Origin: Polyangiales bacterium
GTDB lineage: Bacteria > Myxococcota_A > Polyangia > Polyangiales > Polyangiaceae
DNA: 64,000 bases
Direction: 5' to 3'
Assembly: GCA_038231275.1 (NCBI GenBank)
Contig: JBBRLQ010000002.1
Span: forward strand, 544,001 to 608,000
Shown here: in pieces, positions 26,985-45,128 of the stretch
How the letters are laid out: each line of letters begins with the position of its first letter
Position numbering within the stretch: the first letter of the stretch is position 1
Made by a program: the position numbers and the translations under genes
The notes under the pieces: generated by a model
The model's input: the letters and a program-made list of their open reading frames with translations, nothing else
Database searches by the model: none
Told to the model about the DNA's origin: nothing

Positions 26985-29900
26985 ATGTCCGTCTTCAGCC
27001 CCAGGATTCGCGAGTTCTTGGCTGCCCCCGACGACGCGCGCCGGCTCGGACCGTACCGCTGCAAAGAGCTGCTCGACAAAGCAGGGTCAGCGCCCGTCTA
27101 CCGCGCCGTCGAGGAGCACGCGGGGCTCAGCCTGCGCGAGGTCGCGGTGAAGATCTTCGACATCGGGCAGACCAAAGCCGGCGACGCGCCCGAGGGCTGG
27201 CAAGCGCGCGTGGTCGACGAGGCGCGCGCGCTCTGCCGCGTTCAGCACCCCAACGTGATTCGCTTCCACACGATCTCGACCGATCCGAAGCGCGGGCTCA
27301 TGGGCCTCGTCATGGAGTTTGCGGAGGGCGTGAGCGTCGACAAGCAGCTCGACGGCGTGCCGCGCGGCGACGCCAAACGCGTCGCGCTCGCGGTCGAGAT
27401 TGGGATCGACATCGCGGCGGCGCTCGCGGCGGCGCACGAGGCGGGGGTGGTCCACTGCAACGTGAAGCCGTCCAACATCATGTTCACCGCCGGCACCCAC
27501 AAGTTGATCAACTTCGGCATCGCGGCGTCGGTGCGCACGGACGGCGCGAAGGACGATGGCGCGAAGCGCGAAGCCCTCGCGCTCGACGATCTGCCCCCCG
27601 AATCGATCGGCCGCAAGGCGTCGACGCTCGACAAGGCGGGCGAAGGCACGAAGGCGCCGATCACGGGGACGATCGGCTACGTCGATCCGGTCTGCCTCAA
27701 GACCACCTCGCCGCCCAAAGCCGCGAGCGATCTCTACTCGCTCGGCGCGACGCTCTACCAATGCATCGCCGGGGACGTGCCTGCGCTCGCCACCGCGAAG
27801 AAGGCGGGCGGCACGGGCGTCGACAAGAAGGTCCTCGTCGGCGACGCCACCGCCACGCCCCTCGCGGACGTCGCCCCCTCGACGCCTGCCGCCCTCGCCA
27901 AGCTCGTCGACTCTCTCGTAGCCCCGACACGCGAGGGCCGACCTCGCTCGGCCGAGGTCGTCCTCGGTGAGCTCGAACGCATTCGCAGCGCCCTCGCCGG
28001 CCGCGAGCGCGCGCTTCCCCCCGAGGAGCGCGGCCCGTTCCCTGGCCTCGAGCGCTACGAGGAGTCCGATCGCGACGTCCTCTTCGGCAGGTCGGCGGAG
28101 ATCGCCGGCGTCATCGAGCTCGCACGAACACGCGGCCTCGTCGGCATCGTCGGCCTCTCGGGCAGCGGCAAGAGCAGCATCACGCGCGCGGGGCTCCTCC
28201 CCGCGATCGAAGAGGGCGCGCTCGGCGGTTGGCCGAAGAAGTACCGCAGCGTCCTCGTCACGCCCGGCAAGGATTTGATGGCGGCCCTCTCCTCTGCACT
28301 CGAGAAGGTGCTCGGCGCGCCCGTGGACACGCACCCCGAGGCGATCGCCGAGCAGCTGGCGGCCGACGTCGACGCCAAAGGCGAAGGGATCGTGATCCTC
28401 GTCGATCAGCTCGAGGAGATCGTCACGAAGTACGAGGCGAAGAACGAGAAAGGCCGCGCCGCCGCGCTCGATCTGCTCTCACGCCTCGCCGAAGCGCACG
28501 TCGGTCTTCGCGTCATCGTCGCGGTGCGGCGAGATCTGCTCGACGCGTCGCTCGCGATCGATCCGATCTTCTCGCGCGCCCTCTCGCGCGGCATCCAGCT
28601 CCTCGCGCCACTCTCCGGCAGCGGCTGGGAAGAGGTCGTGGACCGCTCGCTCGAGGCCTACGGGTACCGCTTCGAGGACGCCGATCTCCGGAAGCAAGTC
28701 CTCGCGGATCTAAAGGGCCGCGCGTCGGCGATGACGCTCGTGCAGTTCGGCCTGACGCGCCTCTGGGGCGCGCGCGACACGAAAAAGAAGACGATCCCGC
28801 GCGCGGCGTTCAGCGAGAAGGGCGGCATGCAGAACGCCCTCGAAGAGCACGCGGAAGCGGCGATCGCGGCCAAGGAGATCCCGCGCGACACGCTGCGCCA
28901 CGTGCTCCTCGCGATGACGACCCCCGAAGGGACGCGCGCGCACGTCGAGCTCGACGTACTCGTCGAGCGCTACGGCGCCGCGGCGAAAGAGGCGATCTTC
29001 GCGCTGACGAAGGCCCGCTTGGTCGTCGCCGAGAAGGACGGGTTCACGTTCGTGCACGACGCCGTGCTCCGCGAGTGGAGCCTGGTCCGCGGCTGGCTCC
29101 AGGACGCGCGCGACGATCGTCTGCTCGTCGCTCACGTCGAGCGCGACGCGGCGCGCTGGAAGGAGTCGCACGACGTGGCGGAGCTGTGGCGCCAAGGGCG
29201 TCTCGCCGCCGCGGTGGAGCTCTGGAAGCGCGACGGGTCTCCGCTGAGCGACGACGCGAAGGCGTTCCTCGCGGCGGGCGTGAAGGAAGAGCAGAGGGCC
29301 CAGCGGACGCGCTTCGGCGTCGTGCTCCTCGTCGTGTCGATGATCGTCGGAGGCGCGCTTGTCTACGCGAAACTGAGTCACGACAGCGCCGAGCAGGCGC
29401 GTAAGGACGCCGACGCCCTCGCGGCCGCCCTCACCGACGTGAAGAGCCTCAAGCAGCAAGCGGAGGAGAACGCCGGCGAGGCCGCGACGACCGCCGCGCT
29501 CCTGCAGGAGCTGAGGAAGAAGATGGCGGAGGACCAAGCGACGTACGGCGCGAATGTCGCCGCAGCGATGAAGAAGGTCGCGAGCGCGACGAGCCTCGAC
29601 AGCGCGCAGAAGGCGACCGCCGATCTGAAGGCGCCGACCTCCGCGCAGAACCAGATGATCCCGCTCCTCGCGGGCCTCGCGGGGGGACCGAGCATGCCGA
29701 GCCCCGGCGGTACCGGCCCTTCTCCGAGCGGGGGCGGCGGCGGCTTCGATCAGGCGGCGATCGAGCGCGTCGTCAACTCACGTAAAGCCGGCGTCAAGCG
29801 TACCTGCCTCGAGCGGAGCTCCAGCACCGCATCGACTACCAAGGTCACAGCGACGATCACCATCGCCCCGAACGGCTCTGTCCAGAACGTGAGCACCGCG

Positions 29901-30014
29901 GGCGACGAACCGGTCGTGGCGAAATGCATCGAGCAGCAACTCCACAACTGGTCCTTCCCGGCGCCGGGCGAAACGAAAACGGTGCAAATCCCGTTCGTGT
30001 TCGTGCGGCAATGA
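26985..30014 (+). CDS. Ser/Thr pseudokinase-STAND NTPase-TM-coiled coil-AgmX/PglI (TonB-C-like) protein
   Basis: VAVK, HPNV, HCNVKPSN, NFG, GTIGY; PFPGL, GLSGSGKSS, VDQLEE; TM FGVVLLVVSMIVGGALVY; C-terminal NWSFPAP...IPFVF. Confidence 0.85.
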   Translation: MSVFSPRIREFLAAPDDARRLGPYRCKELLDKAGSAPVYRAVEEHAGLSLREVAVKIFDIGQTKAGDAPEGWQARVVDEARALCRVQHPNVIRFHTISTDPKRGLMGLVMEFAEGVSVDKQLDGVPRGDAKRVALAVEIGIDIAAALAAAHEAGVVHCNVKPSNIMFTAGTHKLINFGIAASVRTDGAKDDGAKREALALDDLPPESIGRKASTLDKAGEGTKAPITGTIGYVDPVCLKTTSPPKAASDLYSLGATLYQCIAGDVPALATAKKAGGTGVDKKVLVGDATATPLADVAPSTPAALAKLVDSLVAPTREGRPRSAEVVLGELERIRSALAGRERALPPEERGPFPGLERYEESDRDVLFGRSAEIAGVIELARTRGLVGIVGLSGSGKSSITRAGLLPAIEEGALGGWPKKYRSVLVTPGKDLMAALSSALEKVLGAPVDTHPEAIAEQLAADVDAKGEGIVILVDQLEEIVTKYEAKNEKGRAAALDLLSRLAEAHVGLRVIVAVRRDLLDASLAIDPIFSRALSRGIQLLAPLSGSGWEEVVDRSLEAYGYRFEDADLRKQVLADLKGRASAMTLVQFGLTRLWGARDTKKKTIPRAAFSEKGGMQNALEEHAEAAIAAKEIPRDTLRHVLLAMTTPEGTRAHVELDVLVERYGAAAKEAIFALTKARLVVAEKDGFTFVHDAVLREWSLVRGWLQDARDDRLLVAHVERDAARWKESHDVAELWRQGRLAAAVELWKRDGSPLSDDAKAFLAAGVKEEQRAQRTRFGVVLLVVSMIVGGALVYAKLSHDSAEQARKDADALAAALTDVKSLKQQAEENAGEAATTAALLQELRKKMAEDQATYGANVAAAMKKVASATSLDSAQKATADLKAPTSAQNQMIPLLAGLAGGPSMPSPGGTGPSPSGGGGGFDQAAIERVVNSRKAGVKRTCLERSSSTASTTKVTATITIAPNGSVQNVSTAGDEPVVAKCIEQQLHNWSFPAPGETKTVQIPFVFVRQ

Positions 30015-30030
30015 ACGTACATTCGGCACG

Positions 30031-31110
30031 ATGGATGTCCGCAAGCTCGGTCTGACTCTCGTCGCGTTCTCGGCAGTGGTGTACGGCGCGTGCGTCGATG
30101 ACTCGACCAACAACGGCGGCCCCGACGCGTCGGCACCGCTCGATGCTTCGGTCGACGTCACGACGGGCGGAGACACCGGAACGACCTCAGACGCCGCAGA
30201 CGCCGCCGGCGACGTGGCAGCGGACGTCGCCACCGCGGACGCAGGCGACGGTGGCGCGGGCAACGACGCCGCAGACGCCGCCGACGCCACCGACGCCGCG
30301 ACCGACGCGAAAGACGCGGCCGACACCGGTCCGGGCTTCGACGACGCGGGCTGCCCATTGCCGACGGGGGTCGTCGTCGATCCGGCAGATGCCGGTCTTC
30401 CGGCCACGGGTCTGGCGCTGTGGCTCCGCGCGGACATGGGCTTGGCGACGCTCGACGGCGGCGCGGTGTGCCGATGGGACGACATAAGCGGCAAGACGCA
30501 CCCGTTCGCGCCAGGGAGCGCAACCCCTCCGGCGCTCGACCCGACAGGCATCAAAGGAAAGCCTGGTGTGTCGTTCATCGGTCCCAACCACCACCTCTAC
30601 CGCCCCGACGTGATCGGCCTCGCCGCCACGTCAGGCCGAACCATCGCCGCGTTCGGACGCACGGTCGACACGACGCGCCGCTTCCAATACTTCGTCCAAG
30701 GCACGACCGGCAGCGCGGGCACGTATTTCGGGCTCGACGCCAACACGTTCAGCACAGCGGGGAGCCGCGAGGGCGTCTACGTGACGAACAACGCCTACGA
30801 CTCGAACGTCGCCACCTCGGCGAACCCGCGCAGCCACGTGTTTTCCATCAGCAGCTTCACGCCGGGCGGCGCCCTGCCAGGCGTCCTCGCCTACGCGGTC
30901 GACGGCGTCGACACGACGCTCACGCGAAACGCAGGCGGGCTCGGCAACGGAACGGTGGAGGATTTCTCCACCGCGAACGTGACGGCGATCGGCGCCGGCG
31001 TCGCTGGCTTTACCGGCGCGGAGCTCGGCGAGCTTCTCGTCTACGACCACGCCTTGACGCTGGCGGAGCGCCTCGCCGTCTCGCAGTACTTCGCGGCTCG
31101 GTATCCCTGA
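30031..31110 (+). CDS. Lipoprotein with DA-rich linker and LamG/ConA-like domain
   Basis: YGAC lipobox; LALWLRAD...WDDISG...GELLVYDHALT...YFAARY. Confidence 0.75.
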   Translation: MDVRKLGLTLVAFSAVVYGACVDDSTNNGGPDASAPLDASVDVTTGGDTGTTSDAADAAGDVAADVATADAGDGGAGNDAADAADATDAATDAKDAADTGPGFDDAGCPLPTGVVVDPADAGLPATGLALWLRADMGLATLDGGAVCRWDDISGKTHPFAPGSATPPALDPTGIKGKPGVSFIGPNHHLYRPDVIGLAATSGRTIAAFGRTVDTTRRFQYFVQGTTGSAGTYFGLDANTFSTAGSREGVYVTNNAYDSNVATSANPRSHVFSISSFTPGGALPGVLAYAVDGVDTTLTRNAGGLGNGTVEDFSTANVTAIGAGVAGFTGAELGELLVYDHALTLAERLAVSQYFAARYP

Positions 31111-31116
31111 GATCGT

Positions 31117-31449
31117 TCAGGGCTCGTCCCCGTCCTCGTCGGGCTCGGCGGTGACGAGGAGCGGCATCTCGTTCGCGCGCGCAAAATCCATGATCTGCGC
31201 GGCCTTCGTCTCGGCGATCTCGCGCGTGTACACGCCGGCGACGCCCTTGCCCTTCTCGTGGACGGCGAGCATGAACGTCAGCGCCGACGTCTCGCTCATA
31301 TGGAAAAACTGCTCGAGGACCATGACCACGAACCATTTGGTCGTATAGTCGTCGTTGTAAAAGACGACGCAGTAGCGGCGCGCGCGGGCGGTCTTGGGAT
31401 CGCGCTCGAGCACGACATCGCCGTCGTCGTCGTTCTCCCACGCGCTCAT
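31117..31449 (-). CDS. clpS: ATP-dependent Clp protease adaptor ClpS
   Basis: YCVVFYNDDYTT..FVV, MLAVHEKGKGVAGVYTREIAETK; ATGA overlap with upstream gene. Confidence 0.92.
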   Translation of the reverse strand: MSAWENDDDGDVVLERDPKTARARRYCVVFYNDDYTTKWFVVMVLEQFFHMSETSALTFMLAVHEKGKGVAGVYTREIAETKAAQIMDFARANEMPLLVTAEPDEDGDEP

Positions 31450-32513
31450 AGGACCATCTCCGCGACGAGGTGCCGCACGAGCTCGGCCGCGGGGAGCGTG
31501 CGCGCGAGCGGAGCGCCCTGCCCCGCCCATTGGGCGCCGAAGCCGAACTCGCTCTTCCGCTTCCCCGCCGCGTGCAGCGCTTTGCCAAGATCGTACGCGA
31601 TGGGATAGTCGGGGACGTCCCGCGGCGCCACGCCGGCTCCGAGCGCGGTGAATCGGTTTGCCAGGCAGCGCGCCGGTCGCCCGGAGATCACGCGCGTCAT
31701 CACGGTGTGATGCGCAGCGTCGCTCGCCATCGCCGCTCGGTAGCCGTCGTCGGCCTGCGACTCGGTCGTCGTGACGAAGGCCGTGCCGAGCTGCGCTGCG
31801 CTCGCGCCGAGACGAATCGCCGCCGCGACGCCCGCTCCATCCATGATGCCGCCGGCGGCGATCACCGGCACCGTCAGCGCCCGCGCGAGGATCCGCGTCA
31901 GCGCCAGTGTGCCGAGCCGATCGTCGGACGCGTCGGGATCGAAGACGCCGCGATGGCCGCCCGCTTCGTATCCTTGCGCGACGACCGCGTGCACTCCGGC
32001 GGCGACCAATGTCCGCGCCTCCGCGAGGCACGTCGCCGAGCCGAGGAGCACGATCCCCGCGTCGCGCAGCGCCCGCATGCGATCCGGCGCCGGCACGCCG
32101 AGGTGAAAGCTCACGACCTTCGGACGCTCCGCCACGAGCGCCGCGAGCATGTCGTCGTCGACGAGGAAGCTCCTGCAAATCTCGGAGAGCGACTCCGGCG
32201 CCGGTGCACCCAAGCGGTCGAGCTCAGGGCGGAGCCGGGCGATCCACGCCGCCTCGCGCGCCGCGTCCGCCTTCGCCGGCGAATGGCAAAAGACGTTCAC
32301 GTTGAAGGGCCGGCTCGAGCGTGCGCGGACCGCGGCGATCATCTCGCGCGCGGCCGCCGCGTTCGTTGCGCCGATGCCGATCGCGCCGAGCGCTCCAGAA
32401 TCGGCCACCGCCGCCGCCATCGCTGGCGTGGACACACCGGCCATCGGGGCCTGAAGGATGGGATGCTCGATCGCCAAGAGACGAAGGAGCGCGTTCGGAG
32501 AGGACGGCGGCAT
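31446..32513 (-). CDS. Nitronate monooxygenase (class I-like)
   Basis: PILQAPMAG, EAGGHRG, AAGGIMDG, ISGRPARCLAN, WAGQG. Confidence 0.9.
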   Translation of the reverse strand: MPPSSPNALLRLLAIEHPILQAPMAGVSTPAMAAAVADSGALGAIGIGATNAAAAREMIAAVRARSSRPFNVNVFCHSPAKADAAREAAWIARLRPELDRLGAPAPESLSEICRSFLVDDDMLAALVAERPKVVSFHLGVPAPDRMRALRDAGIVLLGSATCLAEARTLVAAGVHAVVAQGYEAGGHRGVFDPDASDDRLGTLALTRILARALTVPVIAAGGIMDGAGVAAAIRLGASAAQLGTAFVTTTESQADDGYRAAMASDAAHHTVMTRVISGRPARCLANRFTALGAGVAPRDVPDYPIAYDLGKALHAAGKRKSEFGFGAQWAGQGAPLARTLPAAELVRHLVAEMVL

Positions 32514-32611
32514 TGGCGCGGCTCTCAATTTACCCGACGGACGGGACGTCGGCGAGGCTCCCGATGGGGCTGGCTGGCGGGAGCGGGGTCAGCGTACTGT
32601 GGCGGGCTCGC

Positions 32612-34099
32612 GTGTCGGATTCGAAGAAGGCGATCGTCATCGGTGCCGGAGGCGCCGGTCTCGCCGCGCTTCACGCCATGACGCAGGCGGGGTTCGACGC
32701 GGTCGCGCTCGAGCAGAACGGGGAAATCGGCGGCGTTTGGGCGACGACGCGCTACCCCGGGCTGACGATTCATTCCAAGTCGTTCAACTACCGATTCCAC
32801 GACTTCCGTCCGGTCGCGAGCGTGGGACCGAGCGCCACTCGAGAAGAGATCGGCGCCTACTTCGCCGACTACGCGCACGAGAAGGGCATCGCCGGAAAAA
32901 TCGTCCGCCGCCGCCGCGTCGATCGCATCGTGCACCGGCCGGGCCTGGAGTCGGGTAGGTGCCTAGTCCTCGCGAACGACGCGCGCAGCGGCGAAGCGAC
33001 CGAGCACGTGTGCGACGTGGTCGTGTGCGCGACGGGGTTCGCGAACGCAGGCCGCCCGCACGTGCCGCGATTCGCGGGCCAGGCAACGTCACGCGTCAAG
33101 GTCCTCCACTCCAGCGATCTCTCGCCGGAGATCCTCGACGACATCGTGACGCACCGGCGAAAGGTCGTCGTCCTCGGCGCCGGCAAGTCGGCGCACGAGA
33201 TCCTCTGGCTCTTTCGCGAGACGGATCTCGTGGCCGATCTCACGTGGGTCTACGTGAAGAGCCTGTGGTCGATTCGGTACGAGACGCTCTACGCGTCGTC
33301 GGCCATTCCGTGGAACGTGCCCCTTTACGTCTACTACCTCGCCCTCGCCCGGCTCCGGCGCCGCGTCGGCTTCGGCCTCCCGATGAAGGTGCTTCAGGCG
33401 CCGCTCCGGTGGTCGGGGCTCCTCGTCAACCCGCTCGAGCCGCGATCCGACGTGTGCGTGAACCGCACCGCCATCATGAGAGACGAGCAGCTCGCGTACT
33501 TGAAGACGCTGCGCAGTGTGAAGGCCGAGGTGACGGGACTCGGCGAGCGCACCGTAAAGCTCTCGAACGGCGACGAAATCGATGCGGACTACCTCGTCTC
33601 TGCCACCGGCTACGACCGCACTCTCGGTCTCCCGTCGCTGGAGATCGAGGGGCCGGACGGGACGTCGAGGTCCCACGCCCTCACCGACCAGCACGGCTTT
33701 TACCACCAGATGGTCGACCTCGCGGTTCGGGACGTCTCCGTCCTCGCGGCGAACGTCCTCTATCCGCAGCAGCTACTCGGTTACTCGCTCGGCGCGCAAT
33801 GGCTCGCGCGCTTTCACGCGGGCCGGCTGGCGCGTCCGCCGACCCACGGCGAAATGACCGCGTCGCTCGCGCGCGACGTCGCCAAGTTCTCGGCCTGGGG
33901 ATCCTCGGAGTACCTGAGCCGCGGTCAACCCTATGCGCACGAGCGCAACGAGGACGTGCTGCCGCGCCTGTTCGAGCAGATGGGGCTGGCGCCGGGTCTC
34001 GCGCGATCGCTCGTCACGAGCGGCGCGAACGAGCGGAAGTTCTCGGACCTCTGCGACACCGTCACGCGGCAGCTTGATCAGCGCGGGCGCGGCATGTAG
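32612..34099 (+). CDS. Class B flavin-containing monooxygenase
   Basis: GAGGAG, GGVW, CATG, F.G......LHSSD, GAGKSA, second ATGY. Confidence 0.85.
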   Translation: MSDSKKAIVIGAGGAGLAALHAMTQAGFDAVALEQNGEIGGVWATTRYPGLTIHSKSFNYRFHDFRPVASVGPSATREEIGAYFADYAHEKGIAGKIVRRRRVDRIVHRPGLESGRCLVLANDARSGEATEHVCDVVVCATGFANAGRPHVPRFAGQATSRVKVLHSSDLSPEILDDIVTHRRKVVVLGAGKSAHEILWLFRETDLVADLTWVYVKSLWSIRYETLYASSAIPWNVPLYVYYLALARLRRRVGFGLPMKVLQAPLRWSGLLVNPLEPRSDVCVNRTAIMRDEQLAYLKTLRSVKAEVTGLGERTVKLSNGDEIDADYLVSATGYDRTLGLPSLEIEGPDGTSRSHALTDQHGFYHQMVDLAVRDVSVLAANVLYPQQLLGYSLGAQWLARFHAGRLARPPTHGEMTASLARDVAKFSAWGSSEYLSRGQPYAHERNEDVLPRLFEQMGLAPGLARSLVTSGANERKFSDLCDTVTRQLDQRGRGM

Positions 34100-37000
34100 C
34101 CGCGGACGACGAACCGCTCGACGTAACGCCGCACCAGCGCTTCGTCGACGGGCGGACAGGCGATCCCGGTTCCTTCGAGGGCGCACGCGGTCCGCGCCTC
34201 GTCGTATGTGGGGAGATGGAGCCAGTCGGTGTCCTCGTGGCCGACGAAGAGCGGCAAGAGCGGCGCGAGCGCGTTCCCCGTCGCCTCGGCGCGTTCCACG
34301 AGGACCGAGCGCCACTCCGCGTACGGCAGCTCCTCGAGCGGATACCCGAGGTCACGGATCCACGCGACGAGATCCGTCCACGGGACCGCGCGCGGGCCGA
34401 CGAGGTGATGGTTCCCCGACGACGGCGTCGACGTCAGCGCGATTCGGACGAGCGCGCTGCTCACGTAGTCGACCGGCGCCAGGTTGATCGGCGCGTCGAC
34501 GCGCGGCGCGAGACCGAGCTCCACGCAGCCCTTCATGAGCGCACAGACGAAGTCGTCGGGGTTGAACGCGCCGGAGGACGAGTGACCGGAGATGGTGCCA
34601 GGTCGATAGATCGTCGCGTCGAGGCCGCGCTGCCGTGCCTGCACGACGAGCTCCTCCGCCACCCACTTCGCGCGCATGTAGCCGAGCGGCAGTCGCTCGG
34701 GCTGGTCGGCGCGTGCGTCCTCGAGGACGGCGCCGTGACGGCCGAGCCCGCCGGGAAAGACGCCGATCGTCGACACATGGTGGAGACGCGCGCCCGCAGC
34801 AGCTGCGAGCCGCAGCACCTCCTCCGTGCCGCCCACGTTGCTCGCCTCGAGCGCCTCGTACGGGAAGACGAAATTCACCGAAGCGCCGCTGTGAAAAATG
34901 GTGTCGACGGTTCCCGAGAGCCGGTCGAACGCCAGAGGCTCGAGGCCGAACCGCGCCTTCGAGAGATCGCCGGGCACACACGCGACGCGCGCGGCGAGCT
35001 TCAACGCAGGGAGATCGTAGCGGGAGAGGATGCCCTCGAGGCGCCGAATGCCCTCGCTCGCGGTCCGCGCGCGGACGAGGCAGTGGACCGTCGCGTCGGT
35101 GCGCTCGAGCAGCTCGGCGAGCACGAACGCGCCGAGGAATCCTGTCGCGCCGGTGAGGAAGATCGCGCGAGGTGGGGTAGCGACGTGCGGCCTGAACGTG
35201 ATCGACTCGTCGAGGCGCGCCCTCTCGCGGAGCGAGAGAGGCACGTTCGTAGGCGACGGCAGGCTCTCTCCACCCAGCCGCGCCGACAGCTCCGCCGCGA
35301 GCTCGCGGATCGTGGGGCCGCGGAGGAGCCGCTCGGTCGGCAGCTCGATCTTCAGGTCCTCCGCCATCTTCGACTGGAGCTCGAGCGCGGTCAGCGAGTC
35401 GACGCCGAGGTCGATCAGCGATCGCTGCGGCGAAATCGGCTCGGGATCGTGAAGCACGGCGCCGGCGATCGTGCACAGATACGCCTCGAGCGCGGCGATG
35501 CGCTCGGGTGCCGTGCGGGATTGCAGCTTTGCGGCGAGCGCGCCGTCCGCTCGCGCCGCGGCGGGCTCGCCGAGCGGCACGAGGCGGGGCATGGACTTCG
35601 CGTGCGGATAGAACGAGGCCCACCGTCGCGCGTCGAAGGTCACTACGCCCACGGTCGGCGGTGCATCGACGGCGAGAACGTTTTCGAGGAGATCCGTGGC
35701 GTGCCGAACCGCGAGGCTCGAGACGCCGCGATCCGCGAGCTGCGCCACGGCCTTGGCGCCTGCGTTCGCAGCCATGCCGGTGTCCTCGATCACGGTCCAC
35801 GCGATGCTCGTCGCAGCCAAACCGCGCGCGCGCCGGTGCTCCGCGAGCGCGTCGAGGTACGCGTTGCCGGCGGCGTACGCGCTCTGACCCGGCATCCCGA
35901 GCAGCGTCGCCACCGACGAGTACATCACGAAGAAGTCGAGCGGCTGCGACGCCAGGAGCTCGTGGAGGTTTCGGGCGCCCGCCACCTTCGCGGCGTTCGA
36001 CGCGTCGAGCTGCTCGGGGTCGATCGCGGAGATCATGGCGGGCGACATCACGCCGGCCGCGTGGATGACGCCGCAGACGGGATGCTTGCGCACCACCGCT
36101 TCGAGCGCGTCGCGATCGGCCACGTCGGCGCGCTCGACCACCACGGTCGCCCCTCGAGCGGTCATCTCGGCGACCGCGGCGCGCGCCTCGTCCGTGGCGA
36201 CGCCGCGGCGGCCCACGAGTACGACTGTCTTCGCGCCGCGTTCGACGAGGCGCCGCGCCGCCGCGAGGCCCAAGCCGCCGAGGCCTCCCGTCACGAGGTA
36301 GGCCCCCTCACTGCGCAGCCGGAGGCGCGACGTCGGCGAAGGGAGCGGTTTGCGCTCGAGACGCGCGACGTACCGATCCGCTCCGCGAAGCGCCACCTCG
36401 AGCTCGCCGTCGTCGGACGACAGCTCGGCGAACAGCATGTCCGCATCTGCAGCGCGCTCGCCTCGCGCCAGATCGACGAGCGAGCAGCGAAGCCTAGGGA
36501 GCTCGTTCACGACGACGCGCCCAAATCCCCAGATCGTCGCGCCCGCGAGCGCCGACATGCTGGACTCGTCACCGACCACCTGCGCGCCTCGGGTGAGCAG
36601 CCACAGTCGCGGCTGCGCGGCCTCCCCCCGCCGCGCGAGCGCCTGAACGAGCCGCACCGTCGCGCCGAGATCGCCGTCGCAGAACTGGATGACGCCGGAC
36701 ACCGCATCGGAGGGCGCCAGCTCTCGGGCCATGCGCGCGCTGTGGCCGGCGCGCGCGAGCCGAAGGACGAGGGCCTTTGCGGTCGCGCCGCCGTCGCCGA
36801 GCACGAGCCACTCCCCCGGATCGTGCGGCGCCGACGACGGGCGGCCCGCGCGCATCCAGCTCGGCACGAGCACACCTTGCGGCAGCACGGTCGCGGCGTT
36901 CGGGGGCGCGAGATCGAGCCAGCTGTGCTCACGCTGCCACGGGTAGCTCCCGAGCGCGACGAAGCGCGCCTCCGCGTCGTCCAGGCGCTTCCAATCGACG

Positions 37001-38850
37001 TCGATGCCGAGGCAGTACAGCTCGCCGATCGCCTTCCGGATCGACGCGCGCTCGCCGAGCTCCGGCGCCCCCGACGCGATCACCGCGCCAGGGACGGCCG
37101 CGCGCGCGAGCACGTCGCGCAGCTCCTCGGTCAAGATGGGACGCGGGCTCAGCTCGACGAACACGGTGCCGTCCTCGCCGAGGCTGGCCGTCGCGGCCGA
37201 CAGATCGCGATGCGACGCATGGACGATCGCGTCCGGCACGACGCCGAGCTCGCGCCACACTTCGACGAGCGCGCGACCGCTCGCGGGATCGCACGCAGCC
37301 TCGTCGGGGAGGACGAAGACGAGCTTGTGCGCGCGACCCGGCACGACGCTGCCGGAGACGATCGACGCGATCTCTCTGGACGGCAGCACCACAATCGCGC
37401 GGCGGTGATCGTGATGGTCGCGGCGCGTCGCTGCGGTGTGGGCCAGGTCGACGAGCTCCACGACGGCGGACGCCAGGACCTCGCGGGTCCGATGTTCGAG
37501 CACGTCGAGCGCGGCGACGCTGCGCGCGGAGATGGGGATGAGCGACGCGCGTGGCGAGAGCTTCCTCGCGGTGGCCGGCGCGTCCGACGCGGCGAGGACG
37601 ATGTGCGCGTTGGTGCCGCCCATCCCGAACGAGCTCACCCCGGCAACGCGCTCGCCGTCGGGCCACGGCGCAGCCCGCGCCTGGACGTGGAGCCCACGCT
37701 CGTCGAGGCGCAGGTAGGGGTTCGGCGTCTCGAAGTTCAGGCTGGGCGCGAGCGTCCGGTGCTCGAGCGAAAGCACCGCCTTCATGAGACTCGCCACGCC
37801 CGCCGCCGACTCGAGGTGACCGAGATTCGTCTTCACCGAGCCGATCGCGCACGAGCGACCATGCACGCGCCCCTCGCCGACCACAGCGCCGAGCGCTGCC
37901 ACTTCGATGGGATCGCCGATGAGCGTGCCGGTGCCGTGCGCCTCGATGTAGGAGACGTCGCTCGGCGTCACGCCGGCGCGTCGGTACGCCGTGCGGAGCA
38001 CCTCTTCCTGTGACCACCGACTCGGCGACGTGAGCCCGTTCGAGCGTCCGTCCTGGTTCACCGCCGACCCACGAATGACGGCGTGGACGCGGTCGCCGTC
38101 GGCGAGGGCGCGCGACAGGCGCTTGAGCACGAGCAGCCCGACCCCCTCCCCTCGCACGATACCGCGGGCGCCCGCGTCGAACGCGCGGCACCGTCCATCC
38201 GTCGCGAGGAGCCCCGCGCGCCCGTAGAACACGTCCATCGTGCGATCGAGGATCACGTTCACGCCGCCGGCGATCGCGACGGGGCTCGACTCGTCGGCCA
38301 GGAGGCTCTGGCACGCCAGATGGACTGCGACGAGAGACGACGAGCACAATGTGTCGACGGAGAGGCTCGGCCCGCGCAAATCGAGGAGGAACGAGATCCG
38401 GTTCGATGCAATGGCGAGTGAGCATCCGGGTCCGAGCTGCGCGTCGATCTTGGAGAGATCCTGCGCGTGCCGCCGCGCGAAGTCCGCGTTCATGACGCCG
38501 ACGAAAACGCCGGTGGTGGTTCCCGAAAGCCCGGCGATCGGCTGACCGGCGTCCTCGAGCGCCTCCCACGCGACCTCCAGCAGCAGGCGCTGTTGCGGAT
38601 CCATTCGCGCCGCCTCGCGCGGCGAAATCCGAAAAAAACCGGCGTCGAAGCGATCCAGGCTTTCGAGGAAGCCACCGCGACGGCACGACGGCGCTTGCGC
38701 GACGAGCCACGGCGGCGGTTCGAGCTCCGGACGTTCCGCGGGCGGCTCACGAACGGCCTCGGCGCCGCGGACGAGGAGGTCCCAATACGCTGCCGGGCTC
38801 GGCGCGCCGGGGAATCGGCAGGCCATCCCTACGATAGCGACGGACTCCAT
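34078..38850 (-). CDS. Monomodular type I PKS: KS-(truncated AT)-KR-ACP-thioester reductase
   Basis: KS DTLCSSS/HGTGT/NLGH; KR VTGGLGGLG, SAYAAGN; ACP LGVDSL; R domain LTGATGFLG, GYMRAKWVAE. Confidence 0.92.
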   Translation of the reverse strand: MESVAIVGMACRFPGAPSPAAYWDLLVRGAEAVREPPAERPELEPPPWLVAQAPSCRRGGFLESLDRFDAGFFRISPREAARMDPQQRLLLEVAWEALEDAGQPIAGLSGTTTGVFVGVMNADFARRHAQDLSKIDAQLGPGCSLAIASNRISFLLDLRGPSLSVDTLCSSSLVAVHLACQSLLADESSPVAIAGGVNVILDRTMDVFYGRAGLLATDGRCRAFDAGARGIVRGEGVGLLVLKRLSRALADGDRVHAVIRGSAVNQDGRSNGLTSPSRWSQEEVLRTAYRRAGVTPSDVSYIEAHGTGTLIGDPIEVAALGAVVGEGRVHGRSCAIGSVKTNLGHLESAAGVASLMKAVLSLEHRTLAPSLNFETPNPYLRLDERGLHVQARAAPWPDGERVAGVSSFGMGGTNAHIVLAASDAPATARKLSPRASLIPISARSVAALDVLEHRTREVLASAVVELVDLAHTAATRRDHHDHRRAIVVLPSREIASIVSGSVVPGRAHKLVFVLPDEAACDPASGRALVEVWRELGVVPDAIVHASHRDLSAATASLGEDGTVFVELSPRPILTEELRDVLARAAVPGAVIASGAPELGERASIRKAIGELYCLGIDVDWKRLDDAEARFVALGSYPWQREHSWLDLAPPNAATVLPQGVLVPSWMRAGRPSSAPHDPGEWLVLGDGGATAKALVLRLARAGHSARMARELAPSDAVSGVIQFCDGDLGATVRLVQALARRGEAAQPRLWLLTRGAQVVGDESSMSALAGATIWGFGRVVVNELPRLRCSLVDLARGERAADADMLFAELSSDDGELEVALRGADRYVARLERKPLPSPTSRLRLRSEGAYLVTGGLGGLGLAAARRLVERGAKTVVLVGRRGVATDEARAAVAEMTARGATVVVERADVADRDALEAVVRKHPVCGVIHAAGVMSPAMISAIDPEQLDASNAAKVAGARNLHELLASQPLDFFVMYSSVATLLGMPGQSAYAAGNAYLDALAEHRRARGLAATSIAWTVIEDTGMAANAGAKAVAQLADRGVSSLAVRHATDLLENVLAVDAPPTVGVVTFDARRWASFYPHAKSMPRLVPLGEPAAARADGALAAKLQSRTAPERIAALEAYLCTIAGAVLHDPEPISPQRSLIDLGVDSLTALELQSKMAEDLKIELPTERLLRGPTIRELAAELSARLGGESLPSPTNVPLSLRERARLDESITFRPHVATPPRAIFLTGATGFLGAFVLAELLERTDATVHCLVRARTASEGIRRLEGILSRYDLPALKLAARVACVPGDLSKARFGLEPLAFDRLSGTVDTIFHSGASVNFVFPYEALEASNVGGTEEVLRLAAAAGARLHHVSTIGVFPGGLGRHGAVLEDARADQPERLPLGYMRAKWVAEELVVQARQRGLDATIYRPGTISGHSSSGAFNPDDFVCALMKGCVELGLAPRVDAPINLAPVDYVSSALVRIALTSTPSSGNHHLVGPRAVPWTDLVAWIRDLGYPLEELPYAEWRSVLVERAEATGNALAPLLPLFVGHEDTDWLHLPTYDEARTACALEGTGIACPPVDEALVRRYVERFVVRGYMPRPR

Positions 38851-39098
38851 TATTTCGTGCTCACCGCCGCGGCGAGATGACGTGCGAGCGCTTCGATCGT
38901 GGAGTGATCCCAGAGGAGCGTCGGATCGAGGCTGAGCCCGAGCCACTTCTCGAGCACGCCGACGAGGTGCACGGCTTCGATCGACGCGATCTCGTAGCTC
39001 GCGAAGGGCTCGCGCACATCCACGCGCTCGATGGGAATGCGCGCGGCAGCGGCGACTTCCACGACGATGCGATCGCGGATCTCTTTCTCGGTGGGCAA
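38850..39098 (-). CDS. Stand-alone acyl carrier protein
   Basis: TTG start with GAGGAG RBS; PFASYEIASIEAV...LDPTLLWDHSTIEALARHL; TAATG overlap with PKS start. Confidence 0.85.
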   Translation of the reverse strand: MPTEKEIRDRIVVEVAAAARIPIERVDVREPFASYEIASIEAVHLVGVLEKWLGLSLDPTLLWDHSTIEALARHLAAAVSTK

Positions 39099-39100
39099 CG

Positions 39101-40765
<1,665 letters not shown>

Positions 40766-40871
40766 CAGCAGAAGACTCTACGCGGCGCCGCAGGCTCAGG
40801 CATCGGAAGGACTCCCCATATTGCGCGATGGGCCTCCCCACGTTGCCGTTTGTTGGTACCATTATCCCGAC

Positions 40872-42032
40872 GTGGATAGTCCGCAAAACATCGACGAGTT
40901 CCGAAGATACGTGCGCGCGTTCATCGAGGGGGAGGTCGCGCCCAACGCCGAGCAGTGGACGCGCGAGCGCTCCGTCCCGAGAGCGCTCCACCTCGCAGCC
41001 GGTCGCGCGGGGCTCCTCGGCCTCAAGTATCCCGTCGCATGGGGAGGGCTGAACCGCCCGTACGCGTTCACCCACGTGATGCTCGACGAGTTCGGGCGGT
41101 CCGGCGCGATGGGCTGCCTCCTCAGCCTCGCGCTGCAGTCGGAGTTCTCGACGCCGCACCTGGCGCTCTACGGCGGCGAGTCGCTCCAGCGGCGCTTCCT
41201 CGCACCTGCGATCGCCGGCACCTGCATCCTCGCGATCGCGATGACCGAGCCCGAGGGCGGCTCCGATCTCGGGAGCTTGCGGACGACCGCCACGCCGGTC
41301 GACGGCGGCTACCGCGTCTCCGGACGAAAGTGGATGATCGGCAACGGGTCCTTGGCCGACGCGCTCTGCGTGGTGTGCCGCGCGTCGGATCACGTCGAAG
41401 GACAGCTGCCGCGCGCGACGATGGTCCTCGTCGAGGCGACGACGCCGGGCTTCTCCGTGGTCAAGCAACTCGAGAAGACCGGCCTCCACGCCACGCCGAA
41501 CTGCGAGCTCCTCTTCGACGACTGCTTCGTCCCCGCGGAGAACGTGCTCGGTCGGCCCGGGTTGGCGATTCCGCAAGGGCTCGTCGCGAACGCGTACGAG
41601 CGCGTCGCCCTCGCGATCCTGGCGACCGGCGCGATGCGCGCAGGATGGGAGAGTGCGGTGCGATTTCTAGGGTCACGCGGCGCCGGCGGTCGCGCATTGC
41701 TCGACCGTTCGCCGTGGCGCCATCGCCTCACGCAGGACTATCTCTTGATCGAGGGAGCCGCGCGCATCGTGAAAGACGCCGTCCTCAGCCTCGAGGGCCA
41801 AAAACCCGACCAAGCGCTGGTGCTCATGGCGAAGATCGCCGCGACCGAGGCTTGCCAAGAGGTCCTCCAGCACGCGTCGCAGGCGCACGGCGCGCGCGGG
41901 TTTCTCGCCGAGGAGCACATCGGCCGACTCTGCGCGGACGCGCGGGCGCTCACGATCGGCGGCGGCGCGACCGAGGCGTTGCTCGAGGCGCTCTCACGGA
42001 TCGTGCTGCCGGCCGTGATGCGGTCGGGCTGA
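40872..42032 (+). CDS. Acyl-CoA/acyl-ACP dehydrogenase
   Basis: IAMTEPEGGSD, SGRKWMIGNG, KLEKTG-like motif, FDDCFVPAENVLG, TIGGGATE. Confidence 0.9.
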   Translation: MDSPQNIDEFRRYVRAFIEGEVAPNAEQWTRERSVPRALHLAAGRAGLLGLKYPVAWGGLNRPYAFTHVMLDEFGRSGAMGCLLSLALQSEFSTPHLALYGGESLQRRFLAPAIAGTCILAIAMTEPEGGSDLGSLRTTATPVDGGYRVSGRKWMIGNGSLADALCVVCRASDHVEGQLPRATMVLVEATTPGFSVVKQLEKTGLHATPNCELLFDDCFVPAENVLGRPGLAIPQGLVANAYERVALAILATGAMRAGWESAVRFLGSRGAGGRALLDRSPWRHRLTQDYLLIEGAARIVKDAVLSLEGQKPDQALVLMAKIAATEACQEVLQHASQAHGARGFLAEEHIGRLCADARALTIGGGATEALLEALSRIVLPAVMRSG

Positions 42033-42771
42033 TCGACGCCCCTCCTACGAACTCCGATGCCTCCTTCGCGAGGACGACCCATGACGCCTTCGCGCTCGTG
42101 ACCGTGAGCCACTCCTTCATGAGCCGCCCGTGCCCGGGGTCGAACGCCTGGCCGGTACCCCGCGCAATCAACGCGGCGACGCGCTCCTTGGGGAGCTTCA
42201 CGACGAGCGTGCTCTGCGTGAAGAGGGCGAAGAGCTTCCCGTCGATCTTGAGCCCATTCTTGCCGAACGTCCGACCACCGGCGACCCTCGTGCGCGCTTC
42301 GAAGTCGCGGACGATCGGCGCGAGCTCCGGGTCGGTGCGAAGCGCGTCAAGGAGACCAGCGACCTTGGTCTGCGGCGCCGACGCCGGCTTCCGCTTGCGC
42401 CACCCACCCGCGCGGTTGTTGGCGATGATCTGCCGAAACATCGCGGTCAGACCCGCGGCGTCGGGCTCCTCGCCTTCGCGGATCGCGACGGTGCGGGCGG
42501 TCTTGTTGCCGTGGCCGCCGGTGATGATGCCGCGAGGATCCGGCACGATTCCGCCGTCGTAGAGGAAGACGTTCACGTGGTCCTTTGCGACAAGCAGCGC
42601 GCACACGTTCCCGGCGAGAACGAAGTATGGCTGCCTCGTCCGCTTGATGGTCTCCTGGACCTCCGGATCGGCCGCGTGCACCAGGTCGCGCACCTGCTGA
42701 CAGATCGCCTGCGCCCACTCCGGAAACGCGCGAATGTAGACATCGACTCGGGGATCCTTGACGTACTTCAC
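41950..42771 (-). CDS. DUF1801 domain fused to TfoX-N-like domain
   Basis: DPRVDVYI...VRDLVHAADPEVQETIK; C-terminal FG..GLKIDGKLFA...LVVKLP...GRLMKEW. Confidence 0.7.
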   Translation of the reverse strand: MKYVKDPRVDVYIRAFPEWAQAICQQVRDLVHAADPEVQETIKRTRQPYFVLAGNVCALLVAKDHVNVFLYDGGIVPDPRGIITGGHGNKTARTVAIREGEEPDAAGLTAMFRQIIANNRAGGWRKRKPASAPQTKVAGLLDALRTDPELAPIVRDFEARTRVAGGRTFGKNGLKIDGKLFALFTQSTLVVKLPKERVAALIARGTGQAFDPGHGRLMKEWLTVTSAKASWVVLAKEASEFVGGASISPTASRPAARSVRAPRATPRSRRRRS

Positions 42772-42809
42772 CGCCGCATTGTCACCCAACGACGCGTGCT
42801 ACGGCAACG

Positions 42810-43259
42810 TCAACGCGGGGCGCTGCTCTCCAGGATCGTCTTCAGCTTGGCGAGGTCCTTGCGGTTGGCGCGTCGCATCGCGCTCGCCATGAACGGCGCG
42901 ACGAGCTTGCCGAAGCCGCTCGGTTCGCCTCGGTTTCGCAAGGTCATCTTCGTTCGCCCGCCAGGCTGCGCTTCCCAGGTGTACGTCGTCTCCATCGGGA
43001 AGGGCCCCTCCTCGGTGCGCATGACCAAGCGCTCTTCGGGCAGGAGCTCGACGATCTCGTAGGTGTACGCGAGGCGTCGGCCGAGAAAGTGCGCGACGAA
43101 TGCCACGCGCGAACCGGTCGCGAGCTCGGCGGGGGTCTTCCACTCCACCGACTCGATGTTGACGTACCAGCTCGGGGCGTTGTCCGGCTCGCGCGCGAAG
43201 GCCGCGACCTCTGCGGGGGGCCGGTCGATCACGATCTCGGTCAACACGTCGACGGGCAC
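42810..43259 (-). CDS. SRPBCC (polyketide cyclase/dehydrase-like) protein
   Basis: [16 protein letters not shown]...[11 protein letters not shown]...[19 protein letters not shown] before GTG. Confidence 0.88.
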
Positions 43260-43325
43260 GTTCTCTCCTCGCCTTCGAGATGTATCGTCCCCCGTGCAAG
43301 GAGACAATCCGCTGTTTTTGAGACG

Positions 43326-43349
43326 CATTGTCACATCTATGGGACAATG
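43326..43349. promoter_or_regulatory. Putative LysR-type binding site in divergent promoter
   Basis: Inverted repeat CATTGTC-N10-GACAATG; a further GACAAT half-site at about 43303. Confidence 0.55.
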
Positions 43350-43354
43350 AAAGG

Positions 43355-44302
43355 GTGACCAAGATACTCGGCATGCCGACGCTCGCGCGCACGGAGGCGC
43401 GCATCGAGGACATGCGGCTCTTCGCCAAGGTCGCCGAGGCCAAGACGTTCACGGCCGCTGCGCTTCTCCTCGAGATGCCGAAGCAGACGCTGAGCCGCCG
43501 CGTCGCCGAGCTCGAACGCGCGCTCGGCGTCGTGCTCCTTCATCGGACGACGAGGCGCCTCCACCTCACCGAGGCCGGCGCGGCCTACGCGCAGCGGTGC
43601 GCCGAGATCGTGCGCTTGGCCGAAGAGGCCAACCACGCCATCACCGACGACGTGGCGATCCCCAAGGGCGTCTTGCGTGTCACCGCCGATCCGCTGTTCG
43701 GCGAGACCTTCCTCGCGCCGCTCGTCGTCGCGTACGCGAAGCGATGGCCGGCTGTGCACGTCGAGGTGACGCTTACGCCGAGGCGCGTCGACCTGGTGGA
43801 GGAGGGTTTCGACGTCGCGTTTCGAGTCGGTGTGCTGGGCGAGTCCGACCTCTCCGCGAAGAACCTGGGGCCAGCGCGCGTGCGGTATTGCGCGAGCCCC
43901 GGCTATCTGTCGCGACGCGGCGCGCCGAAGACGCCCAAGCAGCTCGCCTCCCACGAGTGCGTCTTGGTGCACGCGGAGGGCGGGACGACGCGGTGGCCGT
44001 TCCGCGGGCCACGTGGCATCGAGCTCGTCTCCGTTACCGGACGCCTGCGCTTCAACAGCTTCGCCATGGGGAGGAGCGCCGTTCTGGGCGGCCTCGGCAT
44101 CGCCATCTTCCCCGAGTTCGCGTGCGAGGACGACGTCCGCCGGAAGCGGCTGGTGCCCGTCCTCGAAGATTGGACGGTGGACGTCGGCGCGGTGTGGCTT
44201 CTCCACCCGGCGGGGCGGTACCTGACCGCGCGCGTCCGCACCTTCGTCGAGCTGGCGCGCGAGCGCCTCGAGCGCGAGCCACCGTGGGCTTCCCACGACT
44301 GA
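43355..44302 (+). CDS. LysR family regulator (CrgA-like); start uncertain
   Basis: [54 protein letters not shown]. Confidence 0.93.
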
Positions 44303-44322
44303 GAGCGGGCGTTCGTCGCCGC

Positions 44323-44703
44323 TCAGGTCGCCGTCGCGAGCTTGTCCCAATAGTTGGACTGCCACCCTTTCGCCAGGTGCTCCTTCATGTCCGCCGGAAA
44401 GCCATCGTGGTCGAAGACGACCTTGGTCCCCGCTCCGTCACCCTCCAGCTCGAACCGTACGATCGAGTAGAGCCCCTCCGGCCACGTCTTCGCGCGCCAG
44501 GCCTGCACGACGCGCTTTCCCGGTACCAGCTCCACGTGGCGGCCGGTGATGTGCCCGCCGAACGACGTGAACGGCGCGCCCTCGGTGGAGTCGCCGGTCG
44601 CAGGCGCCCCGGTCACCTCCGCGAAGCGCTTCGCGTCGACGAGGGCTTGGAAAATGCGTGCCGGTGCGGCGCCGAGCGTCACGACCTGATGAATGTTCGA
44701 CAT
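44323..44703 (-). CDS. SRPBCC/AHSA1-like protein
   Basis: IHQVV...FGGHITGR..ELVPGKRVVQAWR...GWQSNYWDKL; AAGGAG RBS. Confidence 0.88.
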   Translation of the reverse strand: MSNIHQVVTLGAAPARIFQALVDAKRFAEVTGAPATGDSTEGAPFTSFGGHITGRHVELVPGKRVVQAWRAKTWPEGLYSIVRFELEGDGAGTKVVFDHDGFPADMKEHLAKGWQSNYWDKLATAT

Positions 44704-44759
44704 GGCGAGATCTCCTTGTGGCGAATCGTTAAACCATTCGGTATAGTGATCCTCACTGC

Positions 44760-45128
44760 ATGTCAACGCGCAACGCCGCTACCCGTCGCGACGAAAAGTT
44801 GGACCTCGTCTTCTCCGCGCTGGGTGACACGACGCGGCGGCACATCCTCGCGCGCCTCGCCCGTGGGCCCCTGTCGATCACGGCGATCGCGGCGCCCTTC
44901 GAGATCACCCTCCCCGCCGTCTCCAAGCACCTCCGCGTCCTCGAGCGCGCGGGACTGCTCCGCCGCGAGCGCGACGGGTGGTACCACCGCTGCCACCTGG
45001 AGACGCGGCCGCTCGAGAGCGCCGTCGCCTTCCTGGCGAAATACAGGCCGTTCTGGGAGGACACGCTCGAGGCGCTCGCGCAGCACGTGGAGGCACCCGT
45101 GAAGAGAGAGGGATCCGATCATGAGTGA
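44760..45128 (+). CDS. ArsR/SmtB family regulator
   Basis: VFSALGDTTRRHIL...AVSKHLRVLERAGL. Confidence 0.92.
   Translation: MSTRNAATRRDEKLDLVFSALGDTTRRHILARLARGPLSITAIAAPFEITLPAVSKHLRVLERAGLLRRERDGWYHRCHLETRPLESAVAFLAKYRPFWEDTLEALAQHVEAPVKREGSDHE

Follow-up and report, generated by a model that had tools for sequence, protein, structure and literature searches.

What is made by a fatty acid-primed polyketide synthase (PKS) module that has lost its own acyltransferase (AT)? This question is raised by positions 32612-42032 of a 64,000-nucleotide stretch of DNA from a Polyangiales bacterium (assembly GCA_038231275.1, contig JBBRLQ010000002.1, positions 544,001 to 608,000), the whole of which is called the window here. 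The locus is read as a four-gene lipid-modifying cassette, encoding an acyl-CoA/acyl-acyl carrier protein dehydrogenase family flavoprotein (ACAD), a fatty acyl-AMP ligase (FAAL), a stand-alone acyl carrier protein (ACP) and a single-module PKS, with an optional fifth gene for a flavin monooxygenase (FMO). It would yield a 3-hydroxy aldehyde or 1,3-diol that is unsaturated and two carbons longer than the starting fatty acid. A probability of roughly 0.55 is given to this explanation as a whole.

Because the window is ~69% G+C, its genes were called from third-position G+C together with domain scans (Pfam, NCBIfam). A preliminary description of this DNA had listed a FAAL, an ACP, a PKS with ketosynthase (KS), ketoreductase (KR), ACP and thioester reductase (R) domains, a divergent ACAD and a convergent FMO, and all five genes were found at the coordinates it gave. 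The cassette and the domains of its PKS are as follows.

32612..34099 (alternative ATG at 32564), plus strand: FMO, a class B flavin monooxygenase (FMO-like), with Pfam FMO-like, Pyr_redox_2 and Lys_Orn_oxgnase matches and NCBIfam matches
34078..38850, minus strand: single-module PKS of 1590 aa with KS, vestigial AT, KR, ACP and R (Pfam, NCBIfam)
37396..38850, minus strand: KS domain, residues 1-485 (PF00109, PF02801, PF16197)
36307..37395, minus strand: KS-KR interdomain, residues 486-848 (363 residues), with the KS-AT linker, an apparent AT remnant that has no nucleophile, the post-AT linker YPWQRE and the structural part of KR; no dehydratase (DH) and no PF00698 match
35761..36306, minus strand: KR catalytic domain, residues 849-1022 (about to 1030; PF08659, E 4.4e-62)
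35290..35481, minus strand: in-module ACP, residues 1124-1187 (PF00550)
34081..35163, minus strand: R domain, residues 1230-1590 (TIGR01746, match 1230-1584)
38850..39098, minus strand: stand-alone loading ACP of 82 aa with a TTG start (PF00550)
39101..40765, minus strand: FAAL (NCBIfam models, PDB match)
40766..40871, no strand: divergent intergenic region of 106 bp between FAAL and ACAD, presumed to be a shared promoter region (sequence)
40872..42032 (longest open reading frame from 40821), plus strand: ACAD (three ACAD Pfam domains)

The genes for FAAL, ACP and PKS are three closely coupled minus-strand genes: the FAAL stop TGA ends 2 nt ahead of the ACP start, and the ACP stop TAA and the PKS ATG have one base in common (TAATG). 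The FMO gene is convergent with the PKS gene, and the two reading frames share 34078-34099, which agrees with the 22-bp overlap described earlier. The ACAD gene is divergent from the FAAL gene, and its probable start, GTG at 40872, was judged from the orthologues. A scan for promoters and terminators gave none inside the cassette and none at 40766-40871; it was based on the sigma-70 consensus, which is uninformative for this type of organism.

The catalytic residues of the PKS were examined in an alignment of 18 full-length orthologues at 60-72% identity. KS C169/H305/H345, KR S978/Y992/N996, ACP D1151-S1152-L1153, and both the TGATGFLG motif and Y1391/K1395 of R are invariant in all of them. 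The R domain scores 315.6 bits with TIGR01746 against a cut-off of 213.35, also matches NAD_binding_4, and resembles the peptidyl carrier protein (PCP)-R part of the myxochelin MxcG model NF038078 (E 4.1e-87, below the whole-protein cut-off). With the domains in order and their catalytic residues intact, the previously proposed logic of FAAL-ACP priming, one extension, ketoreduction and reductive release holds.

The AT is the part that has been lost. The Pfam AT profile (PF00698) has no match in the window PKS or in 16 of the 18 orthologues, and in the other two it is matched at positions 50-116 and 67-111 of 319, with 37-39 bits. GHSxG is missing from the AT site of all 18. The nearest full cis-AT relative, L027 from Sericytochromatia (KS-AT-DH-KR-ACP-R), has an AT of 319.6 bits; compared with it, the window PKS has 22 residues against 230, so that ~208 AT core residues are gone, and 35 residues against 326 in a stretch that includes the DH of L027. 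The pieces kept are the KS-AT linker, the first AT strand (VFVLPDEAAC; VLVFPGQGSQ in L027), and the last AT strand with the post-AT linker (FVELSPRPIL ... YPWQRE). The alignment indicates that the PKS carries a dead AT remnant and that the AT core is lost in all 18 aligned orthologues, and on these three counts (PF00698, GHSxG, core residues) the functional AT of a cis-AT modular type I PKS is absent. Thus, the KS-KR-ACP-R reading of the preliminary description was right in that Pfam finds no AT, but it had overlooked a decayed remnant between KS and KR. Across the 18 orthologues, KS and KR are 289 to 492 residues apart, and the interdomain is the least conserved part of the protein (41-55% identity, versus 67% for the R domain).

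The AT-decayed proteins also form a group of their own. A quick maximum-likelihood tree of 23 rows was computed, leaving out the partial P0007, P0015 and P0021, the frameshifted L021, and the partial L119, L121 and L123. In this tree, one clade (SH-aLRT 100) unites the 21 AT-decayed rows; the longest AT remnants (P0019, 492 residues; P0016, 476 residues) branch close to the clade base, and the shortest (289-321 residues) all lie within the most derived sub-clade. The family is a natural series of AT decay in a cis-AT-type module, and could show how dependence on trans-loading arises.

Two other features of related PKS proteins were noted. In the deep-branching P0019 and L121 (L121:2-4018), the PKS extends ~330 residues past the R domain, and PF10118 ('predicted metal-dependent hydrolase') matches this C-terminal addition weakly (E 3e-5, below cut-off); the addition might serve as a different tailoring domain in lineages that showed no FMO. 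L027 and L035, the nearest full cis-AT relatives and both from metagenome-assembled genomes (MAGs) of Sericytochromatia, have a FAAL, an ACP and a KS-AT-DH-KR-ACP-R protein of 2120-2122 aa whose R domain is 38-39% identical to that of the window, followed by open reading frames of ~480 aa and ~1650 aa.

Since the module has no working AT, its malonyl extender has to come in trans. Neither the window genes nor the scanned flanking genes of nine orthologous loci included an AT gene, and the dedicated AT of a trans-AT PKS is thus absent. The KS also appears to fall outside the trans-AT KS lineage, as judged by the nearest KS loci and by an L027-type out-group with a full AT. The sole stand-alone AT of the genome itself is FabD-like and lies on another contig (C7:27286-28167), beside a FabF-like KS, and three phosphopantetheinyl transferase matches were found outside the cassette.

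The chain would be supplied by the FAAL, which is so assigned because it is nearer to FAAL than to acyl-CoA ligase models and structures. It scores 524.5 bits with the FAAL domain model NF004282, 396 with NF004509 and 381 with NF009124, and only 160 with the best generic acyl-CoA ligase model (NF004837), all of these scores falling below the whole-protein cut-offs of NCBIfam. The top-scoring full-length PDB matches are FAALs, and the best of them is 7R7E (E 4e-138; 542 query and 551 target residues), the FAAL domain of a PKS from Picosynechococcus PCC 7002 (PMC11837247). The match to 7R7E suggests that the FAAL-specific insertion is shared. Among the 80 closest KS loci of species-representative genomes, 70 have a FAAL co-directionally upstream, and this type of KS therefore belongs to a FAAL-primed starter module. 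In the loading ACP, Ser39 is invariant (9/9), the orthologues begin with M at the same position, and the Asp preceding Ser39 is replaced by Ala, Gly or Thr in this clade. At one metagenome locus, L117, FAAL and ACP were found to be fused in one 646-aa protein (L117:4200-6140 and 13217-14644, recorded together with the integrase of that locus).

The ACAD has PF02771, PF02770 and PF00441 matches, all above their cut-offs. Its FAD motif TEPxGGSD and E260-R261 are invariant (E260 in 18/18), and GGG stands at the position of the MCAD-type base; we take E260 to be at the position of the catalytic base of isovaleryl-CoA dehydrogenase (IVD) and long-chain ACAD (LCAD). Its closest structures include long-chain ACAD. 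NCBIfam matches below threshold were obtained for RedW (E 9.1e-43) and MbtN (E 1.7e-20); RedW/PigA are prolyl-PCP dehydrogenases, and MbtN is an acyl-ACP dehydrogenase. The ACAD family is sharply bounded, with ~45 orthologues at 67-84% identity followed by matches at no more than 50%, and is better conserved than the PKS.

Linkage of the ACAD to the core was traced by tblastn of the window proteins against two genome loci (L020, L021) and seven metagenome loci. An ACAD is present in 6/6 loci with enough flank, at 66-83% identity and in three arrangements. In the window, L020 and L021, the ACAD and FAAL genes diverge; elsewhere the ACAD gene lies 4 kb upstream and is cut by the locus end (L117), lies directly upstream and co-directional (L122), or follows an R-domain fragment (L123). 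L118-L121 start inside or just before the core and are unscorable for the ACAD. ACAD-clade orthologues occur at 2 of the 80 genome loci, both times beside the core, and no orthologue was found in 40 related genomes, where matches reach at most 36% identity. Co-conservation of the ACAD with the core, which the preliminary description had made a test of its proposal, is thus borne out, and on this linkage the ACAD is judged to be a core cassette gene. In L020, a gene for a DedA/VTT-family membrane protein runs in the direction of the ACAD gene and overlaps its end (L020:5959-6840); no counterpart was seen in the window.

The FMO was assigned by fold and motifs. Its AlphaFold model (pLDDT 89.4) matched FMOs and Baeyer-Villiger monooxygenases (BVMOs) in Foldseek with a probability of 1.00; it aligned best, at TM 0.6-0.7, with class B enzymes of the FMO type (a pyrrolizidine N-oxygenase, DiatB, ancestral FMOs and the Ox domain of LbmA), and BVMOs were slightly lower. 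By sequence, its strongest matches to solved structures (E 1e-9 or weaker) are confined to the N-terminal part, the matches that span most of the protein are weak ones to ancestral FMOs (E 4e-7 and 1e-6), and Protein Atlas gave generic FMO-like clusters only. GAGGAG and GAGKSA, the two GxGxx[GA] motifs, and ATGY are present in 34/34 orthologues. Two dinucleotide-binding motifs and a class B fold together make it a class B flavin monooxygenase. A type I BVMO was considered and rejected, the fingerprint of that class, FxGxxxHxxxW[P/D], being found in 0/34 orthologues.

The FMO adjoins the PKS in three of nine loci (window, L118 and L119; PKS identity 63-67%), with the same convergent overlap in L118 and L119 and 72% identity to the window FMO. 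There are about 55 FMO orthologues. A longest contig of 505706 bases is listed for orthologues of all three proteins (PKS, ACAD and FMO), and so is one of 21566 bases; contigs of 23409, 237185 and 11769 bases are each listed for an ACAD and an FMO orthologue. Such matching of longest-contig sizes is a proxy, and suggests further co-location of FMO, ACAD and PKS. On the PKS tree, FMO-positive rows occupy three sub-branches of one 17-row clade, a pattern that would fit one early gain followed by repeated loss.

How would these enzymes act together? The route would begin with adenylation of a free fatty acid by the FAAL and its loading on the stand-alone ACP. The LCAD/IVD-like ACAD would then desaturate the acyl chain at the alpha,beta position to give 2-enoyl-ACP, the chain presumably being bound to ACP rather than to CoA. 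The KS would accept this chain and condense it once with malonyl on the in-module ACP, the malonyl arriving in trans, most simply by way of FabD. The KR would reduce the 3-keto group, and because the module has no DH, the hydroxyl would be retained. The R domain with NAD(P)H would release a 3-hydroxy(alk-4-en)al or, after a second reduction, an alk-4-ene-1,3-diol. The FMO would oxidise the product further in those sub-lineages that have it. The order of these steps, the chain length, the choice between aldehyde and alcohol, and the FMO chemistry are all provisional.

If this route is correct, four or five genes turn ordinary fatty acids into C(n+2) hydroxy-aldehydes or 1,3-diols, and the cassette is a compact target for heterologous expression and oleochemical engineering. 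It is also one orphan cluster among many, and is known from metagenomes alone. A bolder and distinctly tentative extension is that this is a mobile, self-contained cassette midway from a cis-AT to a FabD-loaded module, which might make a sphingoid-base-like alk-4-ene-1,3-diol that has no amine, or a 3-hydroxy-4-enal that dehydrates readily to a reactive 2,4-dienal. Such a compound might be an undescribed signal, membrane lipid or toxin in soil Myxococcota and, going by record labels, also in Actinomycetota and Gemmatimonadota.

Several observations weigh against the proposed route or against parts of it. The role of FabD as malonyl loader is purely conjectural, the cassette having no dedicated trans-AT. 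The KR has neither of the usual stereochemistry motifs, as read by eye. Sequence cannot tell whether the substrate of the ACAD is bound to ACP or to CoA, or whether the ACAD acts before or after extension. No ACAD is listed with the same contig size as the PKS-orthologue contigs of 763609, 136104, 84617, 28749 and 14477 bases, or as the 88825-base contig of a partial orthologue; the ACAD may not be universal in the family, although contig size is a proxy that cannot show absence. The PKS of L021 lies in at least four frames (L021:10001-14918), through long-read errors or decay, and among the sequencing runs listed, none that contained the stretch was an RNA run. The FMO calls for the most caution. 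Its nearest folds mostly oxidise N or S atoms, which are absent from the proposed product; no FMO was found within 2-10 kb downstream in L020, L021, L117, L120, L121 and L122 (6/9 loci), and none was found in G041 and G042, the genomes with the full orthologues L020 and L021. It is therefore dispensable for the core chemistry. The earlier expectation that the FMO would be co-conserved with the core stands for L118 and L119, which share the overlap, but fails as a general rule, and the FMO is an accessory tailoring gene.

Could the locus do something simpler, or something larger? If the module did not elongate, the KS would only pass the acyl chain to the in-module ACP, the KR would be idle or act elsewhere, and R would release an aldehyde or alcohol of unchanged length, as a carboxylic acid reductase or fatty acyl reductase does. 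The AT being dead in every member, and the lack of a dedicated trans-AT in any locus examined, speak for this; but non-elongating KSs are usually missing a histidine, whereas here the Cys-His-His of the KS and the Ser/Tyr/Asn of the KR are invariant in the 18 orthologues, ~1000 KS and KR residues are unlikely to stay intact with no use, and a FabD is available in the genome. We regard this alternative as improbable. A less improbable one, though still a minority reading, is that the cassette makes a building block, an aldehyde that enzymes encoded elsewhere capture (by transamination, glycosylation or condensation, for example) into a larger final metabolite that is unreadable here. The flanks do differ in every orthologous locus, P0019 and L121 carry the C-terminal extension with the weak PF10118 match, aldehydes from R domains are commonly processed further (TamH both releases and transaminates), and the 1,3-diols of cyanobacteria occur sugar-bound. 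Against this, no aminotransferase or glycosyltransferase is conserved beside the core, and the core of four genes travels together between neighbourhoods that are unrelated and apparently, by record labels, between phyla, which fits a self-sufficient cassette.

Two further explanations deny that the genes work as a pathway at all. In one, AT loss inactivated the locus and what is left is a decaying PKS remnant that has no product. The lost AT core, the frameshifted PKS of L021, the bare R fragment of L123 and the mobile-element genes near L021 and L117 are what such decay would leave, yet the window PKS is an open frame of 1590 aa, the 18 orthologues agree in every catalytic residue outside the AT, the clade of AT-decayed proteins is an old one with varied branches, ACAD orthologues keep 67-84% identity, and fast evolution is confined to the interdomain region; the explanation is very doubtful. 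In the other, which is just as hard to credit, the ACAD and the FMO are chance neighbours outside the pathway. In the window, both genes do run opposite to the core, and the FMO is not beside the PKS in six of nine loci. For the ACAD, however, the idea is contradicted by its presence in all six scorable loci in three gene orders, by its lack of an orthologue in the 40 relatives and by its occurrence solely beside the core among the 80 genome loci; for the FMO, the overlap geometry is the same in three loci, and the gene had no match at E 1e-20 or better in the 40 relatives and was not found in a 400-genome sample of the phylum.

Where is this cassette found? No PKS orthologue was detected in the 40 relatives, which include two genomes of the same genus (95% and 83% complete); matches there are KS-only or KR-ACP-R-only pieces of other synthases at no more than 54% identity. 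About 20 PKS orthologues (P0007-P0026) were obtained, at 51-66% identity over residues 480-1590 and all from metagenomes or MAGs; the next matches are ordinary KS-AT-...-KR-ACP-R proteins, mostly at 32-41% identity. Polyangiaceae or Kofleriaceae names are attached to several of the orthologues of the cassette proteins. Among the 80 best KS loci of species-representative genomes, two (L020 and L021) hold full orthologues, recorded as an Actinomycetes MAG and a Gemmatimonadales MAG, with taxon labels that are unverified. The stretch itself was matched in two DNA runs of one study (sediment and soil metagenomes), and the better match may come from the source sample.

The cassette appears to be mobile and to have spread horizontally. 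In L021 (L021:4482-5669), 0.9 kb separate the ACAD gene from a gene for IS21 IstB, and in L117, a gene for a phage-type integrase follows the PKS gene downstream at a distance of 2.2 kb. The ACADs of L021 and the window share 83% identity, although their hosts bear different phylum names. This nearness of mobile-element genes and the identity across phylum names together point to horizontal spread. L123 contains approximately the last 244 R-domain residues (73% identity) followed by an intact ACAD (82%), beside two RND efflux pump genes (L123:9953-12084), and has the appearance of a cassette copy that was rearranged or has decayed.

In the window, DNA synteny with the same-genus genomes runs through a STAND-kinase gene to ClpS (~31436) and resumes at ~47868 in one of them (G001). 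By this comparison, the ~16 kb from 31446 to 47868 are specific to this genome. Besides the cassette, this segment contains the following genes.

31446-32528, divergent from FMO: FabK/nitronate-monooxygenase (NMO)-like gene
41950-42798: DUF1801/TfoX-like gene
42810-43334: SRPBCC gene
43322-44302: LysR regulator gene
Within 31446-47868: genes for an ArsR regulator, two AHSA1/SRPBCC proteins, a GNAT acetyltransferase and a PanE-like reductase

The FabK/NMO-like, DUF1801/TfoX-like and LysR genes were considered as cassette members and rejected, having no counterpart in any orthologous locus. The SRPBCC gene at 42810-43334 has a homologue elsewhere in G001. No other neighbour is conserved across the orthologous loci, and the flanks differ at each. 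A 359-aa gene (30031-31110, plus strand) with no Pfam or NCBIfam match borders the variable segment and separates the STAND-kinase gene from ClpS; the same-genus genomes G001 and G002 have nothing at its place. Elsewhere in G001, another contig (C57:27904-29291) matches its DNA at 95% identity, compared with 77-84% for the syntenic flanks, and the gene may be mobile or recently transferred. The STAND-kinase gene (26628-30014, plus strand), just left of the variable segment, encodes a protein of 1128 aa that joins a Ser/Thr kinase to an nSTAND1 NTPase, and both same-genus genomes conserve it at 83-84% DNA identity.

Which known systems does the cassette resemble? A close comparison is with cyanobacterial olefin synthase (Ols), which has the architecture FAAL-ACP-KS-AT-KR-ACP followed by a sulfotransferase and a thioesterase (PMC11730487). 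In both, a FAAL-ACP pair primes one KS...KR-ACP extension module that gives, or in the cassette would give, a 3-hydroxyacyl-ACP, and the nearest structure to the window FAAL, 7R7E, is the FAAL domain of Ols. The resemblance noted in the preliminary description is therefore sound for the front end, but of the Ols-type order only FAAL, ACP, KS, KR and ACP are present, the AT being a remnant. Unlike Ols, the cassette has separate FAAL, ACP and PKS genes and a dedicated ACAD, and it ends in a thioester reductase; the terminal sulfotransferase-thioesterase of Ols and CurM was absent from the window PKS in Pfam and NCBIfam scans. Its product would be an aldehyde or diol, whereas that of Ols is an alpha-olefin.

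Long-chain alkane-1,3-diols and their glycosides in cyanobacteria have been linked to heterocyte-glycolipid (hgl) islands, and both KR and a thioester reductase appear in the gene key of these islands (PMC11804610). The likeness in KR and thioester-reductase logic is at a generic domain level. The hgl systems are multi-protein and iterative, with their own AT, chain length factor, DH, enoylreductase, glycosyltransferase and transporters, whereas the cassette has one module, FAAL priming, and no AT, glycosyltransferase or transporter.

The FAAL, ACP and ACAD of the cassette form the same triad as MbtM (FAAL), MbtL (ACP) and MbtN (acyl-ACP dehydrogenase) of mycobactin biosynthesis. The MbtM model matches the window FAAL at E 1.2e-69 and the MbtN model the window ACAD at the E value given above, both far below the equivalog cut-offs. 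In mycobactin, the enoyl chain goes to lysine, with no PKS extension.

In the tambjamine system of TamA (adenylation-ACP), TamT (FAD enzyme) and TamH (thioester reductase-transaminase), a fatty acid is activated and held on a carrier, flavoprotein desaturation has been proposed to occur on the tethered chain, and an aldehyde is released reductively; the TamT step is described as still unverified in the same report (bioRxiv 10.1101/2025.08.11.669332). Carrier activation, flavoprotein desaturation and reductive release are also what is proposed for the cassette. The tambjamine system differs in having no KS/KR extension and no 3-hydroxyl, and in that TamH transaminates, whereas no aminotransferase was found in the cassette.

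With trans-AT PKSs, the cassette shares a KS module that has no working AT, needs malonyl in trans, and keeps its AT-flanking linkers. It differs from them in having no dedicated trans-AT gene and in that its nearest KS relatives are FAAL-primed cis-AT modules. Its AT loss looks like a small-scale event, probably independent of that in trans-AT PKSs, because the remnant is recognisable, is shortest in the most derived sub-clade, and belongs to a KS lineage whose relatives are cis-AT.

Table 2 of a 2025 FAAL review lists ~60 FAAL-linked products and has no counterpart of the proposed product class, and the words reductase, aldehyde and reductive release do not occur in the accessible text of that review (PMC11837247). 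No characterised FAAL-ACP-KS-KR-ACP-R cluster with an ACAD was found in the open-access literature, in keeping with the earlier statement that no product could be named. Overall, the parts of this cassette are all known from other systems, and what is new is their combination in a small family: a FAAL-primed single module, reductive release, a lost AT and a dedicated ACAD.

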